Origin: a virus | Taxonomy: Duplodnaviria > Heunggongvirae > Uroviricota > Caudoviricetes | Length of the DNA: 6,295 nucleotides | Virus record (IMG/VR): IMGVR_UViG_3300029249_000134 | Span: 1 to 6,295 of that record | Reading direction: 5' to 3' (one strand) | Shown: positions 1-6,295 of the stretch, piece by piece | How positions within the stretch are numbered: position 1 is the stretch's first letter | How the letters are laid out: the number at the start of each line of letters is the position of its first letter | Notes under the pieces: model-generated | Databases searched by the model: none | Told to the model about the DNA's origin: nothing | What the model saw: the letters and a program-made list of their open reading frames with translations, nothing else | Made by a program: the position numbers and the translations under genes

Positions 1-1685
1 ACCAGTTGCTGCGCCTCTGTCTGCGAAAAAATCTCCGGATCATCAGGAAAACGGATGGCATACGACGTGGCTTCATCCGCAGGCGTGGGATCGGCTTTCA
101 TACGGGCATAGAGAATTTCTTTTGCGGTGTCCGTTCCCACTTCACACAGATACACGCCCCGCTGATTGCGGGTTTTTGGCATGGTGATCACCGGCTTGCC
201 ATAGACAGATGCGCCTTTTACCGGCAGCACCCGGAAAACACCGTGTTTTTTTGATCTCTGATAAACAATTTCACCATCGATCCCCCCGGTGTCCCAGCAG
301 ACACGGGAAATAGTCATTTCGGTGCCATCCGCATGGCGGTATTTTTTGTTGATCGCCGCATCCACACGTAACAGCGTCTCTTCCTCATCAGGACGCCCCA
401 TAATGATGATTTTATCCACCAGAAAGGCTTCCTCTCCCAGAGCCCATCCCCAGACATACATCTCAAAACGGTTTCGCTGCGAGTCAATGCCCGCCGTCAG
501 ATAAACCACCCGGGCAGGCACCGCCGCCGTGTAACGCACCACCTTATCCATCAGTACCTGGTGATCGAGTTTTTCGCCCACGGCCTCTTCCCAGGTCTCG
601 CCCAGCGTGGTGTTCACAAAGGTTTTCAGGCCGTTGGGATCTTTCAGTGCATCCAGCCAGTCATAGACAATCTGTACCCAGGTGGTGAACGGACTGTACG
701 CCGTCCAGATATGGAACGTGATGGAGCGCGGCGGCGGAATTTCATCACCCCGGGCGCTGAAAAACGTCAGACCGTCACGGGTCCACATGCCCGTGTTTTC
801 ACAGATCCACCGCCCGTTACTCTGGTCAAGCTCAGACTGATGGATCACACAGCCATGATGCTCACAAAGGTAGAAAACACTTTCTGGCTTATTCTTCTCC
901 CACTTAAGACCGAAAGGCGAGGCATCATCGCCAAATTTCAGATACTGCTCCTCCCCACAGTGCGGACAGGGCACATAAAAACGCATGAAGTGTGCCGACT
1001 CGTTAGCGGCTTTTTCGATCTGGCAGGTGCCTTTGATTTTAGGCGTCGAGCCGCGAATGGATTTTGGCCACACCGACCCCTCAATACGCTTATCCCCCAG
1101 CAGGGTTGGCGAGCCCTCTTTTTCGACATCCGGCTCGAACGAGGAAAGTTCGTCATAGCAGACCACGTCCACGGATTTTTCACGGTAGTTTTTGGCGGCA
1201 GCGCCGCCCAGGCACCAGAAACCGACGCCCGATGAAAAGCGTTTCAGCGTGAGAGTATTGTCACGATGTTTACGACCCAGCCATGGGGAAAGGTCTTTCA
1301 GGCATGGCACGTTCCGAATCGTCGCCTCCACGTGAGACTTCATAAAATCTTCAGCGGCAGAATCCGTGGGCTGAAAAAGCAGACTGTTTCGGGATTTATG
1401 CTCAATAAAATACCCGACCACCCCCAGCAACATCTTTGTATAGCCAACACGGGCAGATTTAATCAGGTTAACCGTGCGAACCTGGTCGTTACCCATACAG
1501 TTCATAATGGCGATCTGGAATGGCAGCGTTTTCCATTCTCCCTCACCATATGAAGATTCTTTAGGCAGATAATAATTTTGATCAGCCCATTCAACTGCCG
1601 TCATTGGTACAACCCTGACCAGAGGCTGCAGCGCAACCGAAACGGCAGCCATCATATTATTCAGTTGTTGCTCTGATATATTCAT
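1..1685 (-). CDS. A: Terminase large subunit (lambda gpA-like), partial; C-terminal ~80 residues lie beyond the window start
   Basis: Manual minus-strand translation from ATG at 1685 gives MNISEQQLNNMMAAVSVALQPLVRVVPMTAVEWADQNYYLPKESSYGEGEWKTLPFQIAIMN..., then ...KRFSSGVGFWCLGGAAAKNYREKSVDVVCYDELSSFEPD... and ...YVPCPHCGEEQYLKFGD..., ending at the window edge with ...AIRFPDDPEIFSQTEAQQL. Frame is open across all 1685 nt and matches remembered lambda gpA (MNIS start, AVEWAD, C-terminal FPNNPDIFDLTEAQQL). Start overlaps the Nu1-like gene by 29 nt, as in lambda. Not in the ORF track because it has no in-window stop. Confidence 0.93.
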   Translation of the reverse strand, partial: MNISEQQLNNMMAAVSVALQPLVRVVPMTAVEWADQNYYLPKESSYGEGEWKTLPFQIAIMNCMGNDQVRTVNLIKSARVGYTKMLLGVVGYFIEHKSRNSLLFQPTDSAAEDFMKSHVEATIRNVPCLKDLSPWLGRKHRDNTLTLKRFSSGVGFWCLGGAAAKNYREKSVDVVCYDELSSFEPDVEKEGSPTLLGDKRIEGSVWPKSIRGSTPKIKGTCQIEKAANESAHFMRFYVPCPHCGEEQYLKFGDDASPFGLKWEKNKPESVFYLCEHHGCVIHQSELDQSNGRWICENTGMWTRDGLTFFSARGDEIPPPRSITFHIWTAYSPFTTWVQIVYDWLDALKDPNGLKTFVNTTLGETWEEAVGEKLDHQVLMDKVVRYTAAVPARVVYLTAGIDSQRNRFEMYVWGWALGEEAFLVDKIIIMGRPDEEETLLRVDAAINKKYRHADGTEMTISRVCWDTGGIDGEIVYQRSKKHGVFRVLPVKGASVYGKPVITMPKTRNQRGVYLCEVGTDTAKEILYARMKADPTPADEATSYAIRFPDDPEIFSQTEAQQL

Positions 1686-2166
1686 CGAGTAAATCCGGTA
1701 ATTTATCCCCTGCCCGCGCACACTGATTTGCCCCCTTCGCAATAAGGGTTTTCAGATGGTCAAGATGGCGCGGTGTTAAATCAGGAAACTGTCGCTGCAT
1801 GGATAAAGGGATGGAATCAAGCGTACTGGATAACGCCATTGCCAGCTTACTGAGGGCAAAAATACAGAACCCGGTGTCAATAAGTTTTCCTTTTGACACC
1901 TCATTTTTTAACTGCTGTGTAACAGCCTGTTCTGCTGTCAGTTCCCATCTGGCAATAAGCAATTTCTCCTCATAGTCGTCTTCGCTATCGCCATCAGGCA
2001 CATCGTTTTTACTTCTCCTCAGATACGATATGTAAAAATCGCGCCAGGCATCCAGATCCAGTTGCCCTCGCTTATTCGATATCGGGGCACCCGGCAATTT
2101 CTGCAATCTGCGAAGCTGGCGATCGGTCAGACTTAAATGCCTGGCAACTTCAGTCTGCGTAGCCAC
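1657..2166 (-). CDS. nu1: Terminase small subunit (Nu1-like); N-terminal DNA-binding domain diverged from lambda, C-terminal half lambda-like
   Basis: 169-aa ORF from the track. C-terminal half (…DTGFCIFALSKLAMALSSTLDSIPLSMQRQFPDLTPRHLDHLK…LPDLLDEYI) aligns by eye with lambda Nu1 (…ETAFCTFVLSRIAGEIASILDGLPLSVQRRFPELENRHVDFLK…IPGLLSEYI). N-terminus (TQTEVARHLSLTDRQLRRLQ) is HTH-like but unlike lambda. GTG start at 2166 with a TGA in frame immediately upstream and GAGG 6 nt upstream. Confidence 0.88.
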   Translation of the reverse strand: MATQTEVARHLSLTDRQLRRLQKLPGAPISNKRGQLDLDAWRDFYISYLRRSKNDVPDGDSEDDYEEKLLIARWELTAEQAVTQQLKNEVSKGKLIDTGFCIFALSKLAMALSSTLDSIPLSMQRQFPDLTPRHLDHLKTLIAKGANQCARAGDKLPDLLDEYIRATTE

Positions 2167-2213
2167 TCCTCACCTCGCAAAAACTCTCACCTCACAATCA
2201 CAACAAAACCGGT

Positions 2214-2225
2214 CATGTCCGGTTT
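2214..2225 (-). repeat. cosB R1-like element (putative small-terminase binding site), motif AAACCGGACATG on the phage strand; sits inside a 7-6-7 palindrome 2206-2225
   Basis: Plus strand catgtccggttt; one of three copies of the same ~11-12 bp motif between the Nu1-like start and cosN. Function inferred by analogy to lambda R1. Confidence 0.55.
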
Positions 2226-2243
2226 ACATGTCTGTTTTTTGTT

Positions 2244-2255
2244 CATGTCCGGTTC
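2244..2255 (-). repeat. cosB R2-like element, same orientation as the R1-like copy
   Basis: Plus strand catgtccggttc, 30 bp from the R1-like copy. Confidence 0.55.
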
Positions 2256-2300
2256 ACAGAAGACCTGTTTTTATATTTTTCATATAGTTAACTTGAAGAG

Positions 2301-2312
2301 AAACCGGACATG
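2301..2312 (+). repeat. cosB R3-like element, inverted relative to R1/R2-like copies and closest to cosN
   Basis: Plus strand aaaccggacatg. Separated from the R2-like copy by an A/T-tract spacer (2256-2300, tttttatatttttcatatag) where lambda has the IHF site I1. The inverted R3 / spacer / R2 / R1 layout mirrors lambda cosB. Confidence 0.55.
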
Positions 2313-2349
2313 GATCCCGGAAAATTTTCATAAATAGCGAAAACCCGCG

Positions 2350-2361
2350 AGGTCGCCGCCC
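2350..2361. other. cosN cohesive-end site (12-nt overhang GGGCGGCGACCT on the minus strand), within a 45-bp block (2317-2361) identical to the lambda left end
   Basis: Reverse complement of 2317-2361 is GGGCGGCGACCTCGCGGGTTTTCGCTATTTATGAAAATTTTCCGG, matching the lambda genome start from memory. The adjacent 2362-2370 (reverse complement ccggttacg) resembles the lambda right-end terminus. Lies ~185 bp upstream of the Nu1-like start, as in lambda. Confidence 0.85.
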
Positions 2362-2396
2362 CGTAACCGGTCGGATCGCCGGAAAGGACCCACGAA

Positions 2397-2413
2397 ATGA
2401 TAATGATTATCAT
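2397..2413. promoter_or_regulatory. Perfect 8-1-8 palindrome ATGATAATgATTATCAT (Fur-box-like operator candidate) abutting a TATATA -10-like hexamer (2415-2420)
   Basis: Read directly. 2399-2413 GATAATGATTATCAT matches 14 of the first 15 positions of the Fur consensus GATAATGATAATCATTATC. Lies ~36 bp beyond cosN and ~150 bp upstream of the plus-strand ORF at 2568. Confidence 0.3.
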
Positions 2414-2567
2414 CTATATAAGGTTTATCACAACATGTGTGTACGCCATCAAACCACGAGAAATAATCAATTATGACGCAGGTATCGTATTAATTGATCT
2501 GCGTCAAATTAACGTAAAAGCAACTTCAGATAATACAAATCAGCAACACTGAATATGGGGAAACATT

Positions 2568-2753
2568 ATGTCATCAAAGAACAGAACCCGCAGAACAACA
2601 ACCCGCAACATCCGATTTCCAAACCAGATGATTGAACAAATTAACATCGCTCTTGATCTGAAAGGTTCAGGAAACTTTTCAGCGTGGGTTATTGAAGCCT
2701 GCAGAAGAAGGCTGTCAACAGAGAGTTCGGGTATGAATTACATAATTAAGTAA
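2568..2753 (+). CDS. Small (61 aa) basic protein, ribbon-helix-helix-like putative DNA-binding protein
   Basis: ATG at 2568 preceded by GGGGAAA with 7-nt spacing. Sequence MSSKNRTRRTTTRNIRFPNQMIEQINIALDLKGSGNFSAWVIEACRRRL has a basic N-terminal tail, a short strand (RNIRFP) and two helices, consistent with an Arc/MetJ/CopG-type fold. Opposite strand to the Nu1-like gene. Positionally reminiscent of ylcI/ynfO next to nohD/nohA in E. coli K-12 cryptic prophages, but the sequence match is not verified. Confidence 0.6.
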   Translation: MSSKNRTRRTTTRNIRFPNQMIEQINIALDLKGSGNFSAWVIEACRRRLSTESSGMNYIIK

Positions 2754-3382
2754 CATGGTGTTCACAGAACACGCAGTTACCGGACACATCAGTTTTCCAT
2801 TCGCTCCCCGGCAGTACAGGCTTCCCCTCTGACGGGATAGCCTGAAAAAATAACACAGAAAATTATTTGTTATAATTAATATAACTTACTCAAAAAAAAG
2901 CGACGAGAAAATCAGCATCAACGAACAATAAGCGCCAATACGTGATAACAAATGGCAGCCATATTTATCTGCAGTATAAGCAATGGACAGGATAACCACA
3001 CCAGAAACCGTCAGCATAAAATCCATTTGAACTTCCCCGGACAAAATCGACTCATCTAAAGATTTACAGCTCTTTTTATTATCAATATGTTAAAAGTAAA
3101 ATAAACAGATGTTCAATAACACGAATACAAAAACGTGCTGAAATTCAATGAATCCATTTCTGTGTCATCAATTAATAGTGATAAACATCCGGCTTCTTCC
3201 ACCATCGCACCGGACATGCGACTATGAGGGGACAACGCCGCGCTCCGTTAACGCGGTAAACCCCGGTGTGTATCGTTTTTGATTATCCCCGCACACTCGC
3301 ACAGAGGAGTCTCCCGGTCGGGCTGCGGTCTCTGTTAATGCGGGAATACGGCGACAATACCGCGCATGGATAATAAGGTCGC

Positions 3383-3607
3383 TCAACACACTGGCTGTAA
3401 TGCAGCGGATACCATGCGGCATTTAGCGGTATTCATCGTACACTCAACGGTTAGCTCTTCATTCGTGGCATTCACCTGAAAGGTCCGGGAGTGTAATTGC
3501 ATACATTTACCACTGAACGAACCTTCAACAAGAACACGACCACGCTGCAAAATACGGAACAGAATTGTTCCCTGAAGAGGCTTTACGGTTACCTGTAATT
3601 TCTTCAT
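3383..3607 (-). CDS. Hypothetical 74-aa protein with four Cys, directly downstream of Rz/Rz1, at the position where lambda has bor on the opposite strand
   Basis: ATG at 3607 with GGAGA 4 nt upstream, 23 bp after the Rz stop. Product MKKLQVTVKPLQGTILFRILQRGRVLVEGSFSGKCMQLHSRTFQVNATNEELTVECTMNTAKCRMVSAALQPVC has no signal peptide or TM segment and is not Bor-like. The track's longer version starts at a TTG (3625). Confidence 0.5.
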   Translation of the reverse strand: MKKLQVTVKPLQGTILFRILQRGRVLVEGSFSGKCMQLHSRTFQVNATNEELTVECTMNTAKCRMVSAALQPVC

Positions 3608-3630
3608 GCATTCTCCGGATAACAAAAATA

Positions 3631-4104
3631 CTAGTTAATACACTGAGTGCGGATATATTCCTGCGCCCCTCCCACCTGCTTCTGCATTGTCATCAACCGT
3701 TCTCTGAGGATGAAATAATCCCGTTCAGCGGTGTCTGCCAGTCGGGGGCCGGTTGCATTATCCACGCCGGAGGTGGTGGGGGCTTCACGCACGGAGCCTG
3801 GACAGGTGGCGTTGATCCGCAGGCGCTTACGACCAGCGGCAACGTCAGCGCGAAGAGTTTCATTTTCAGCTCTCGCATCGGCTAATTCCCTCGAGTATTT
3901 TGCATCGAGCGCAGCAACATCGCGCTGGCGCACCTGCATATCAGTAATGGTTGCGTTCGCCAGCTTCAGTTCACTGGCTTTGTTATCGCGCTGCGCTTTG
4001 TAGGTAATCGCGTTATCACGGTAATGGTCTGTTGCCATCCACAGCGCACCACAGGCCACCAGCAGAATAACGATAAACGCGGAAAGCATTCGGTTTATGT
4101 TCAC
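3631..4104 (-). CDS. Rz: i-spanin Rz
   Basis: Product contains [69 protein letters not shown]…[23 protein letters not shown], near-identical in blocks to remembered lambda Rz, with an N-terminal TM segment. GTG start at 4104 overlaps the upstream ORF stop (GTGA); alternative ATG at 4089. Confidence 0.9.
3693..3878 (-). CDS. Rz1: o-spanin Rz1, lipoprotein embedded in the +1 frame of Rz
   Basis: Product [61 protein letters not shown] has a lipobox (VVSA-C) and the proline-rich core shared with lambda Rz1 ([27 protein letters not shown]). Lies entirely within Rz in another frame. Confidence 0.88.
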
Positions 4105-4232
4105 CCCAGCAACCCCGACGAAGACAACATCATCCAGGCCATGGAAAGAAAAAGAGCAACCAGCATTAGTGAAAATGAAATGCCGACAATTACACAGAGG
4201 ATCTTCGCCAGCGTTATGAGTTTGTCTGACAT
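4101..4232 (-). CDS. Candidate small single-pass membrane peptide (43 aa) between endolysin and Rz; function unknown
   Basis: ATG at 4232 preceded by AGGGAGGA with 6-nt spacer. Product [43 protein letters not shown] is almost entirely one hydrophobic helix. Its TGA overlaps the Rz GTG start (GTGA), suggesting translational coupling. No homolog recognised. Confidence 0.45.
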
Positions 4233-4246
4233 GCTTAATCCTCCCT

Positions 4247-4429
4247 TCACGATTTCAACGCAATGACCAGTTTTGCCAGCCCATACAGCATCGGGGACAC
4301 AGCAACACCGACCGCCACCCACTTAATGGCAAAAGCCAGTGCTCTGCTGATGTCATCAGTTACAGGCGCTTTCAGTTCAAGGCCGTTTTTCATGGTCAAC
4401 CTCAACAGAATTCGTTTATACTTCGCCAT
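4247..4429 (-). CDS. Candidate small membrane protein (60 aa, amphipathic N-terminus and C-terminal TM) between endolysin and Rz; function unknown
   Basis: ATG at 4429 preceded by AAGGGAGAAC. Product [60 protein letters not shown]. Stop at 4247 is 14 bp before the next ORF's ATG, with that ORF's SD in between. The track's longer version starts at a GTG (4462) inside the hairpin flank; the ATG with SD is preferred. Confidence 0.45.
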
Positions 4430-4462
4430 GTTCTCCCTTGCCTTACTCAAGGTCAGAAACAC

Positions 4463-4502
4463 AAAACCCCGCTTGGTGCCAACAAACGGGGTTTTTACTT
4501 TT
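4463..4502. terminator. Candidate bidirectional intrinsic terminator: perfect 9-bp stem AAAACCCCG / CGGGGTTTT with 15-nt loop and U-rich tails on both strands
   Basis: Stem arms 4463-4471 and 4487-4495 are perfectly complementary (5 GC pairs). Plus strand continues TTTTTACTTTTATT; minus strand continues TTTTGTGTTTCT. Lies 91 bp after the endolysin stop and just upstream of the 60-aa ORF. Confidence 0.45.
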
Positions 4503-4585
4503 ATTCACTTACGTTTCGCCAGTTCGCAGGATTTCGTGTTATCCGCCCGCGTGGCCATGCCTTATTTTTCAGCAAAATATTCTGC

Positions 4586-5119
4586 TTATCTGTCGATACC
4601 CCAGCACGCCAGCGCGCTCTCCTGGTCACGACGGGATACCTGACCGTAACAGTTGTTTGAACGAATACGGCAGTCTCTGCCACCGTCCTTAATCCACCAG
4701 CGAATCGCCTCACAGGCACCTTTTCGATCGCCTGCATTAATTCGTTTATAAAACGTCGACGGGAAGCACTTACCGGGGCCAATGTTGTACGGACAGAATG
4801 ACGCGATCCCCGCTTTCTGGGGTTCGGTCAGCGGCACTTTGATGTTTTTCTCCACCCATGCCAGCGCCTTGTCACGTTCGATGGCATTAACCCGGTCGCA
4901 TTTTTCCTTTGACAGCTTCATGCCAGGAATAACAGGCTTACCATCCACCAGAATGGCACCACGGCAGATGGTCCAGATCCCCGCACCATCACGGTATGCC
5001 ATGGTGTGGTTACCTTCCTTTTCATCCAGAAACTGGTCGAGGATTTCAGGCGCAGAAGCACCTGCACCAATCAGCGCCAGAACGGCAGCCGACAGGCCGT
5101 ATTTTATTTTTTCGTTCAT
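4586..5119 (-). CDS. R: SAR endolysin (T4-lysozyme-type muramidase with N-terminal signal-anchor-release domain), phage 21 R-like
   Basis: 177-aa product has a weakly hydrophobic Gly/Ala-rich N-terminal segment (YGLSAAVLALIGAGASAP) followed by the catalytic triad spacing E-x8-D-x5-T (EGNHTMAYRDGAGIWT), as in T4 lysozyme and R21. No SD upstream of the ATG at 5119; a 6-bp hairpin (5121-5143) abuts the start. Confidence 0.92.
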   Translation of the reverse strand: MNEKIKYGLSAAVLALIGAGASAPEILDQFLDEKEGNHTMAYRDGAGIWTICRGAILVDGKPVIPGMKLSKEKCDRVNAIERDKALAWVEKNIKVPLTEPQKAGIASFCPYNIGPGKCFPSTFYKRINAGDRKGACEAIRWWIKDGGRDCRIRSNNCYGQVSRRDQESALACWGIDR

Positions 5120-5236
5120 GGGGATTTATCGATTTCTAATCCCTTGATATGTTAGGTATATAATCCAACACTCATGGTCGCTCTCATAAACATATCCCTT
5201 GAGACGCAGCAGATTACAACAAATGAAGCCATATAA

Positions 5237-5551
5237 ATGAACAGTAAAGAAAGTTTGCGCAGAAGATTTTTACAACTAATGACAGAAAACGTTAAATCAG
5301 AGTTACTTCTTCTGATGGCAGATAATAACGAAGCAACAAGCAGCATTCTTGCAGACCCTTACGGTAAGATCTCACATAAAACGCTGGATATTATTACCAC
5401 AACATTAACACCGCTGATGCTTCAACGGCTGAAACATAATATCAACGCATGGGTTAATGAAGAATTAAGTCCTCCCTGCTTATGGGATTCTCGTTACGCA
5501 TGTCAGCAAAAAATGCGAATTTTCAACTTACTATCACCAAAGCTCAGGTAG
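5237..5551 (+). CDS. Hypothetical 104-aa protein encoded opposite to the lysis genes inside an AT-rich insert between holin and endolysin (candidate moron)
   Basis: Track ORF MNSKESLRRRFLQLMTENVKSELLLLMADNNEATSSILADPYGKISHKTLDIITTTLTPLMLQRLKHNINAWVNEELSPPCLWDSRYACQQKMRIFNLLSPKLR. Protein-like composition but weak RBS. Consensus TATAAT at 5159-5164 upstream; 8-bp hairpin 5557-5586 right after the stop. Position and size resemble ydfR between essQ and rrrQ in K-12 Qin, but that is from memory and unverified. Confidence 0.45.
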   Translation: MNSKESLRRRFLQLMTENVKSELLLLMADNNEATSSILADPYGKISHKTLDIITTTLTPLMLQRLKHNINAWVNEELSPPCLWDSRYACQQKMRIFNLLSPKLR

Positions 5552-5556
5552 CCATA

Positions 5557-5586
5557 AAATCCTGCCCTTCATGGCATACAGGATTT
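5557..5586. terminator. Hairpin (8-bp stem AAATCCTG / CAGGATTT, 14-nt loop) immediately 3' of the 5237-5551 ORF; weak terminator candidate
   Basis: Arms 5557-5564 and 5579-5586 are perfectly complementary; tails are only weakly U-rich on either strand. Confidence 0.25.
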
Positions 5587-5806
5587 CAATGGAATCACAA
5601 TGACCAACTCTTGCACAGCTGTATCCCTGACTCCCCGACAACTCAGATTTTCAGTATCTGCTGCTATCTAAAGAGAAAGCGCACAAATGCAAGGGTCTTT
5701 CATCACGTCCTGTTATTGATTGCCTGTGACCTTTTCTCACCTCATGGAACGTTTTTTCAGTTAGAAATATTCATTTTACAACCAGTTCGTATTGTTTATT
5801 CATCGA

Positions 5807-6022
5807 CTACTCTCCCCGCGCCACCTTACGACGGTCCTCTCTGATTTTGAAATACAGGTTAGTCAGATACGTCAGCAGGCCAAACAGCAGACTCCCCAGC
5901 ACACCTATCGCCACCCACTGGGACGGAGAGACTTTGTCCAGCAGCTGCAGTAACCAGTATCCCGTCCCCACCGCTGACGTGGTGTATGACACACCCGTTG
6001 TGATTTTTTCCATCTGGTACAT
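5807..6022 (-). CDS. S: Class II holin / pinholin, phage 21 S-like, with dual-start motif (Met1 and Met4)
   Basis: 71-aa product [71 protein letters not shown] has two TM segments and a basic C-terminus, closely resembling remembered S21. GGGAGA lies 6 nt upstream of the ATG at 6022; second ATG at 6013. Pinholins characteristically pair with SAR endolysins. Confidence 0.9.
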
Positions 6023-6097
6023 ACCCCGTCTCCCGCAATCCGGAAGCTCACAACAACAGGAGGGGCATCAGCTCACACCGACAGCCCCTGCGTATGG

Positions 6098-6295
6098 TTA
6101 CATCATCATTTCGCCGCCAGGCTGAGGCTCACTGCTACCGTCAGGCTGAGACACAACGCCATCTGAAACAGCACTGTCACCCGCGCCGTCTTCAGGCTCA
6201 GGAGCAGCCGGTCCCCCCAGCAGCTCATCCAGAATGGCATCCACTTCAGCATCAAGACGCGCCTCAAGATTCTGGCGGAGTTGCTGTTTCAGTGC
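6098..6295 (-). CDS. 3' end of an upstream gene (N-terminus beyond window); C-terminal 65 residues are acidic, Pro/Gly/Ser-rich and end in MMM
   Basis: Manual minus-strand translation from the window edge is open for 65 codons: ALKQQLRQNLEARLDAEVDAILDELLGGPAAPEPEDGAGDSAVSDGVVSQPDGSSEPQPGGEMMM then TAA (6100-6098). Codon usage is enterobacterial-like. Identity unknown; does not look like a Q antiterminator C-terminus. Confidence 0.5.
   Translation of the reverse strand, partial: ALKQQLRQNLEARLDAEVDAILDELLGGPAAPEPEDGAGDSAVSDGVVSQPDGSSEPQPGGEMMM

Follow-up and report, generated by a model that had tools for sequence, protein, structure and literature searches.

The window analysed here is a stretch of 6,295 nucleotides (nt), positions 1 to 6,295 of the IMG/VR virus record IMGVR_UViG_3300029249_000134, and represents the late region of a lambdoid prophage read on the minus strand. 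This report deals with an open reading frame (ORF) at 3383-3607, which specifies a protein of 74 amino acids and lies directly after the spanin genes, at the position held by bor in coliphage lambda. The features of this locus are:

3383..3607 (stop codon included), minus strand: gene of the phrog_2571 family, 74 amino acids; based on the ORF listing, the phrog_2571 match, an intact frame in 90/90 loci, substitution ratios, an AlphaFold2 model and the annotation of the Prokaryotic Genome Annotation Pipeline (PGAP)
3612..3616, minus strand: Shine-Dalgarno sequence GGAGA, read from the sequence; GGAG at 3616-3613 ends 5 nt short of the ATG
3631..4104, minus strand: Rz i-spanin gene (PF03245, E=1.3e-48), the proximal boundary of the slot
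3693-3878, minus strand: Rz1 o-spanin gene (PF06085, E=1e-21), embedded in Rz
3245..3365, minus strand: conserved non-coding, hairpin-forming element, the distal boundary of the slot, identified by homology to lambda, DLP12 and a plasmid (with some relatives the homology covers window 3188-3368)
2350..2361, minus strand: cosN cohesive-end 12-mer GGGCGGCGACCT, an exact match, 184 nt upstream of the start of the Nu1-like terminase gene

The ORF extends from an ATG at 3607-3605 to a TGA at 3385-3383 and encodes MKKLQVTVKPLQGTILFRILQRGRVLVEGSFSGKCMQLHSRTFQVNATNEELTVECTMNTAKCRMVSAALQPVC, a product with a mass of 8.3 kDa and an isoelectric point of 9.7. The gap between the Rz stop codon (TAG, 3633-3631) and the ATG is 23 nt. 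The initial annotation, made from the sequence alone, had described a minus-strand 74-residue ORF with a good Shine-Dalgarno sequence 23 bp past Rz, and both its coordinates and the GGAG were confirmed. A longer version starting at a TTG at 3625 (80 amino acids) was rejected since all homologues begin at the conserved ATG (MKK...), which in relatives such as Stx2_EH1846 and O55:H7 CB9615 overlaps the Rz stop by 4 nt. The product carries no membrane or signal segment, the highest Kyte-Doolittle mean over 19 residues being 0.63, and has neither a hydrophobic N-terminus nor a lipobox cysteine. The GC content of the ORF is 45.3% (44% at third codon positions), compared with 54.6% for Rz, 53.2% for R and 54.2% for the holin gene (57–69% at third positions); a similar drop at the family gene was seen in six further genomic contexts.

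The ORF is a genuine conserved gene under purifying selection. The frame was intact, with the identical ATG, in all 90 of the homologous loci fetched, which represent 23 distinct DNA alleles; the premature stops by which a chance ORF was to be recognised according to the initial annotation were thus found in none of them, and the ratio of nonsynonymous to synonymous substitution rates (dN/dS) was well below 1 in deep comparisons. Such pairs gave values of 0.2–0.45, with third-position changes about twice as numerous as first- or second-position changes. Copies without the partner gene described below are constrained as well (window versus locus L002, dN/dS 0.35). When substitution events were counted over all alleles of the E. 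coli clade, the omega of the ORF (0.47) equalled that of Rz (0.51), selection on the ORF being significantly looser than on the endolysin gene (0.11; Fisher p = 8e-7). Against the Stx2c phages the window shows 88.6% identity in DNA but 74% in protein, as neutral drift would give, which raised the possibility of a chance ORF or of non-coding conservation; both were ruled out by the codon analysis. One pair behaves differently. Between the window and the allele of O55:H7 CB9615 (L089, 4001-4225) there are 21 nonsynonymous and two synonymous differences (dN/dS 3.5). The dS is 0.04 for the ORF and about 0.21 for the neighbouring R and Rz genes, whose own ratios are ordinary. Diversifying selection was rejected as a reading of this pair, which is not significant alone (our own binomial estimate is about 0.08) and stands beside a clade-wide omega of 0.47.

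The segment 3200-3700 (501 nt) is 100% identical to the chromosome of E. coli MFDS1001074, and at least 80% of it occurs in 1,178 of 5,426 complete E. coli genomes (about 22%), including O157:H7 and other Shiga toxin-producing strains. PGAP (in NZ_CP106929.1) and several Shiga toxin (Stx) phage records label the ORF a hypothetical protein.

The ORF resides in the bor slot, an exchange site with defined limits: Rz on one side and a conserved structured element on the other. On the proximal side, window 4026-3653 shows 83.7% identity to lambda Rz and also aligns to the Rz gene of DLP12; on the distal side, window 3349-3251 shows 80% identity to lambda 46885-46981. A homologue of about 100 nt of this distal anchor is found between borD and ybcV in DLP12, just beyond iss in an iss-bearing plasmid, and after Rz in a prophage which possesses neither bor nor the ORF (E. 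coli G749). The bor gene of lambda we take to lie at 46459-46752 on the opposite strand, the lambda record used being without a bor annotation; the DLP12 and plasmid annotations show bor and iss on the strand opposite to the lysis genes. Since the ORF lies between the same two anchors that flank bor, it occupies the bor position, and the proposal of the initial annotation that it replaces bor is correct in the positional sense. It is extra DNA: lambda, DLP12 and G749 share both flanks but hold bor, bor and no such gene, respectively.

The distal element was detected in 398 phage records, compared with 26 for the ORF, always in the orientation of the late transcript, and at thousands of E. coli genomic sites. 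A long hairpin was predicted for it by RNAalifold, supported by two compensatory pairs (e.g. CCCGCA/TGCGGG versus CCCGGA/TCCGGG in lambda) and by numerous G-U changes, which on the opposite strand would read A-C; its single-sequence z-score was not significant. A search of the region against Rfam gave no relevant match, so that the element is without a family there and a known RNA is rejected. The element could be involved in processing or stability of the late mRNA, or could serve as a recombination anchor for the exchange of cargo. Further downstream, window 2702-2362 is 87% identical to the right end of lambda, and because GGGCGGCGACCT at 2361-2350 follows directly upon the end of this alignment it is identified as the cos site. 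The distance from the ORF to cos, which is downstream of it on the late-transcript strand, is about 1 kb.

The protein matches the phrog_2571 profile hidden Markov model (PHROGs v4, function unknown) with an E-value of 1.8e-27, residues 1-73 aligning to profile positions 100-172 of 291. The entire profile is covered by a 286-residue protein of PhiR46_1 (L109, 2674-3534; E = 6.7e-164), in which the domain occupies residues 101-169, and hhalign of the family alignment to this full-length member gave a probability of 98%. Because the PhiR46_1 protein holds the matching domain internally, the window ORF is taken to be a stand-alone central domain; the N-terminal ~100 and C-terminal ~115 residues of the full-length architecture (~286 residues) are missing from it. 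The PhiR46_1 gene is situated after Rz and before Nu1, like the window ORF, and is preceded by a nucleoside 2-deoxyribosyltransferase-like gene. Only 45 family proteins, mostly of 70–81 residues, were recovered when 1.8 billion representatives were searched exhaustively with a profile, and stand-alone proteins of 72–81 residues are the commonest form across genera. By profile and word-indexed searches, members were found in E. coli, Salmonella, Yersinia, Providencia, Citrobacter and Scandinavium, all of them named hypothetical. The distant members (Yersinia, Salmonella, Providencia and a metagenome contig) match the same region of the phrog_2571 profile as the window protein, and conserved throughout the family are M1, V6, an F.V.Q.G turn, ED..SGK and Y.VDA.

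The product is confidently predicted to be a small all-beta protein with the fold of a six-strand beta-sandwich. The AlphaFold2 model, built from a 16-sequence alignment, has six strands and one short helix, with a mean predicted local distance difference test (pLDDT) of 84.7 and a predicted template modelling score (pTM) of 0.68. A Foldseek search with this model against the PDB and BFVD yielded nothing significant, the fold matches being generic only, and sequence searches of the PDB with three profiles and with the 286-residue form returned no significant match. The lectin LecB (PA-IIL), the carbohydrate-binding modules CBM6/35/36 and the fibronectin type III-like (FNIII-like) domain of gpJ, all considered for comparison, gave non-significant E-values of at least 0.2 and show no sequence similarity to it; as it has no signal peptide, the product would not meet glycans until lysis.

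The ORF was not matched by Pfam or NCBIfam models. Homology to YbcW, a comparison which the initial annotation had recommended, was rejected by hhalign (probability 0.13%), as was homology to Bor (0.15%, against BorD) and to lambda gpJ (0.2%). No PADLOC defence model matched the ORF or its distant members, and membership of a known defence system was rejected on this result; no toxin or antitoxin domain was found with Pfam. A tblastn search of genome contigs found no relative, nor did one that compared the tail-cluster member P0072 with sequenced phages. No publication on the family was retrieved by literature searches that used the locus tag, the PHROG number, the WP accession, the names of the mEp237 genes and terms for the lysis cassette. 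The gene is therefore uncharacterised, as the initial annotation had it, every source calling its product a hypothetical protein; since PHROGs already lists it as phrog_2571 and PGAP annotates it, it counts as a known unknown.

The initial annotation had also drawn attention to the cysteines. Four are indeed present, at residues 35 (within GKC), 56, 63 and 74, and the absence of membrane and signal features which it reported stands; its emphasis on the cysteines does not. Among close relatives only C35 and C56 are conserved, and in distant members the position of C35 is taken by A, T, S or V and that of C56 mostly by H. As the wider family does not keep them, the cysteines are considered incidental, and a functional motif (metal site or disulfide) was rejected.

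The interval 2700-4200 of the window was scanned for promoters and terminators by a crude consensus search. No sigma-70-like promoter was found on the strand of the ORF, nor any terminator between Rz and the ORF. There was no terminator-like hairpin after the ORF, the minus-strand matches in the interval being restricted to 3571-3556, inside the ORF, and 2772-2758. The same kind of search found no sigma-70-like promoter upstream of the family gene in L083, L095 and L103. In lambda, Q-modified transcription from pR' passes S, R and Rz and continues over cos. Because the ORF is on the same strand with no terminator intervening, and the lambda pR' transcript crosses cos, it should be a late gene. 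Co-transcription with the lysis genes, which the initial annotation had considered probable, is the best inference from the arrangement of the sequence, to which the 23-nt gap and the 4-nt overlap with Rz in relatives also point.

The family gene is always found on the late-operon strand, in variable positions. It lies after the last lysis gene and before terminase in E. coli, Salmonella (L083), Yersinia (L095) and the cultured phage mEp237; between Q and the holin gene, a stx-like position, in Salmonella (L097) and Providencia (L099); in the tail cluster, past a DUF6246 gene in the chaperone position and upstream of the tape measure gene, in Citrobacter (L101) and a metagenome contig (L103); and between gpI-like and J-like genes of the tail cluster in phage SaltyDalty. 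The lysis systems found alongside it comprise P21 pinholin with SAR lysozyme, Phage_holin_8 with M15 peptidase, and Phage_holin_3_3 with DUF2570, and the morphogenesis modules are of the lambda type (Nu1/GpA/portal_2), the HK97 type (TerL/S78 protease/capsid) and Terminase_2 types. The family thus consists of mobile passenger genes at several late-operon junctions of Enterobacterales phages. The link to lysis that the initial annotation implied is not borne out, since members are also located between Q and the holin gene and inside tail clusters.

In ten loci, representing six distinct contexts, the family gene is followed 40–95 nt downstream by a gene of about 70 codons belonging to phrog_4280 (function unknown), the products of which share the pattern MFV..GLKADPDN.GWVLGW.VVR..PWHL.GVYAT.... 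Its hosts are Salmonella, Yersinia, Citrobacter, the metagenome contig and phage mEp237 (gp61). Examples of this partner gene are:

L083 4265-4471: phrog_4280 partner (Salmonella)
L095 4341-4559: phrog_4280 partner (Yersinia)
L097 4319-4534: phrog_4280 partner (Salmonella)
L101 4294-4515: phrog_4280 partner (Citrobacter)
L103 4294-4512: phrog_4280 partner
L107 3306-3527: phrog_4280 partner

An intrinsic terminator follows the partner in three contexts. Between independent insertion sites, similarity at the DNA level is confined to the partner (66–73%), which evolves much more slowly than the phrog_2571 gene; between the two tail-cluster loci, homology spans from the ATG of the first gene to about 10–15 nt before the stop of the partner. 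Searches of DUF models with phrog_4280 gave sub-threshold matches only, and a match to the DamX SPOR domain profile was weak and non-significant (E = 0.08). Neither the window nor any of its close relatives has the partner, and in a further locus, L088 of E. coli (4266-4475), it is a pseudogene in which W16 has become a stop codon, the phrog_2571 gene upstream being intact. This nonsense mutation suggests that E. coli prophages can do without the partner, and together with the window clade it indicates that the first gene persists alone.

Three known systems invite comparison. Morons have been defined as extra DNA of deviating GC content with a promoter and a terminator of its own, expressed from the repressed prophage (PMC3594210). 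The window ORF is extra DNA and deviates in GC content. It has no terminator of its own, and the crude consensus search detected no promoter for it; the ORF is accordingly described as working like cargo rather than as a classical moron. The outer-membrane lipoprotein moron represented by lambda bor, DLP12 borD and the iss gene of ColV-type plasmids uses the same slot, and the ORF is likewise small, lower in GC and optional. The two are unrelated in sequence and lie on opposite strands, and the ORF is without signal peptide, lipobox or detected promoter of its own. Owing to this orientation and to the lack of a detected promoter, expression of the ORF in the lysogen is not expected.

The second system is gene 15 of HK97 (Juhala, Hendrix; PMC3594210). 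The relatives L101 and L103 are in a similar tail slot, between the gene in the chaperone position and the tape measure gene, and resemble morons of the gene 15 type in being at a late-module junction and of deviating GC content; the cassettes of three relatives also end in a terminator. HK97 gp15 is an inner-membrane protein, in contrast to the ORF product, which has no membrane segment and whose gene has no promoter that we could find and no terminator in the window. The third is the cultured lambdoid coliphage mEp237, gp60 of which is a family member encoded directly after an Rz-like spanin gene, in the same orientation and close to the right end of the genome; the arrangement seen in the window therefore exists in a cultured phage. 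Gp60 has 81 residues, with an insertion of nine after the first strand. Unlike the window, mEp237 keeps the partner, gp61 being 67% identical to the Salmonella partner, and both proteins are annotated as hypothetical.

On balance, we favour the explanation that the ORF is a late-made, moron-like cargo gene in the bor slot, the product of which is a soluble all-beta binding module directed, probably, to a host or general target. The stand-alone central domain of phrog_2571 would sit as a passenger between Rz/Rz1 and the non-coding element, and synthesis of its product, from the Q-antiterminated pR' transcript, would be confined to the late stage of lytic growth; late-only synthesis is most likely in view of the late-operon orientation and the lack of a promoter of its own, unlike bor. 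The product would be cytoplasmic and soluble. It appears too small and featureless for an enzyme, and most likely binds something, a protein or possibly a glycan. The target would probably be a component of the host or of cells in general rather than the lysis or virion machinery of the phage, because the family travels among phages whose holins, endolysins, terminases and tails are unrelated; a dedicated role in lysis or the virion is further disfavoured by the lack of any tie to the lysis genes and of envelope targeting. The competing explanations nevertheless retain appreciable probability.

Among these, expression from the repressed prophage as a lysogenic-conversion or defence moron, acting in superinfection exclusion or as a two-gene toxin-antitoxin-like or abortive-infection module, with a benefit to the lysogen, is unlikely. 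The positions concerned (bor, the HK97 gene 15-like tail slot, and the stx-like one after Q) are classic moron slots, the GC content falls below that of the flanks, the cassette ends in an intrinsic terminator in three contexts of relatives, the layout is one of two small genes, and the gene is widespread in prophages, all of which would suit such a function. No sigma-70-like promoter was found upstream in four independent contexts, the 23-nt gap leaving no room for one; the late-operon orientation is invariable, whereas bor is opposite. The negative PADLOC and Pfam results, the lack of envelope targeting for surface exclusion, and a partner which is dispensable, the window clade having none and L088 only a copy broken by a nonsense mutation, all count against it.

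A more ambitious extension of the cargo explanation is also unlikely as it stands. Here phrog_2571 and phrog_4280, with a terminator behind them in three of the contexts, would form a hitherto undescribed mobile two-gene cassette hopping between the cargo slots of temperate Enterobacterales phages (past Q, past the spanins and in the tail operon), in which the late binding protein encoded by the fast-evolving first gene neutralises a variable factor of the host or of a rival phage (e.g. a defence sensor) in the last stage of infection or for the benefit of the progeny, the window carrying a working solo version.

Quite unlikely, in our opinion, is a virion accessory, that is, a beta-sandwich which decorates or helps to assemble the tail or head in the manner of the Ig- and FN3-like domains carried on phage particles. 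The predicted fold and the tail-cluster members bring this to mind, yet there is no sequence relation to gpJ, and the association with several unrelated morphogenesis modules is hard to square with a specific docking site on the virion. The cassette in L101 and L103 occupies a slot like that of the non-structural moron gene 15 of HK97, and other genes intervene.

It is likewise quite unlikely that the product is a lysis accessory which regulates or assists the co-transcribed holin, endolysin or spanin, for example in the timing of lysis or the activation of the spanin. Position after Rz in the window suits this role. Whereas holins and spanins work at the membrane and in the periplasm, the product is without membrane segment, signal peptide or lipobox; moreover, members upstream of the holin gene or in tail clusters are distant from the lysis genes, the family accompanies unrelated lysis systems, and many lambdoid phages with the same Rz do without the ORF, as the record counts for the element and the ORF indicate. 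A structural match to XepA was one of some 1,800 generic sandwich matches.

Finally, a non-functional remnant of the two-gene cassette or of the 286-residue protein, which the loss of the partner from the window clade, the survival of the central domain alone and the relaxed dN/dS (about 0.47 clade-wide, 3.5 in one pair) might suggest, is highly improbable given the intact frame in every locus and allele, the purifying selection evident in deep comparisons including solo copies, the retention of start codon and Shine-Dalgarno sequence, and the prevalence of the stand-alone form in the family.

In roughly one in five complete E. coli genomes, 80% or more of the segment with this gene is present beside genes that release toxin and phage. 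Should the product target a host factor in late infection, the outcome of prophage induction, phage yield or competition among the many lambdoid prophages of such strains could be affected. A single family of small proteins uses several classic cargo slots, and the cassette behaviour and the defined boundaries of the slot appear not to have been described before. The findings extend the well-known mosaicism of phages and do not constitute a new kind of system, the ORF being one of many small hypothetical phage genes.

The remaining features of the window are:

6022-5807, minus strand: P21-type holin gene (PF04971)
5119-4586, minus strand: signal-arrest-release (SAR)-type lysozyme gene (PF00959)
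4462-4247 and 4322-4101, minus strand: two small ORFs with hydrophobic tails (phrog_1115 and phrog_4906, unknown function), between the endolysin gene and Rz
2568-2753, strand opposite to the ORF: YlcI/DUF3950 gene
2166-1657, minus strand: Nu1-like small terminase gene

The stretch 2754-3187, between the conserved element and the YlcI-like gene, is AT-rich (36% GC), and the ORF at 2886-3044 (minus strand) specifies a small hydrophobic product, annotated by PGAP as a 46-residue hypothetical protein and without a PHROG match. In related Stx phages a P22-type antirepressor gene is found in place of the phrog_1115 and phrog_4906 ORFs. Between the holin and endolysin genes, a segment of 39% GC contains an ORF of 104 amino acids (5237-5551, plus strand; phrog_1853, function unknown) which PGAP annotates as a hypothetical protein; relatives carry a same-strand DUF1327 gene there.
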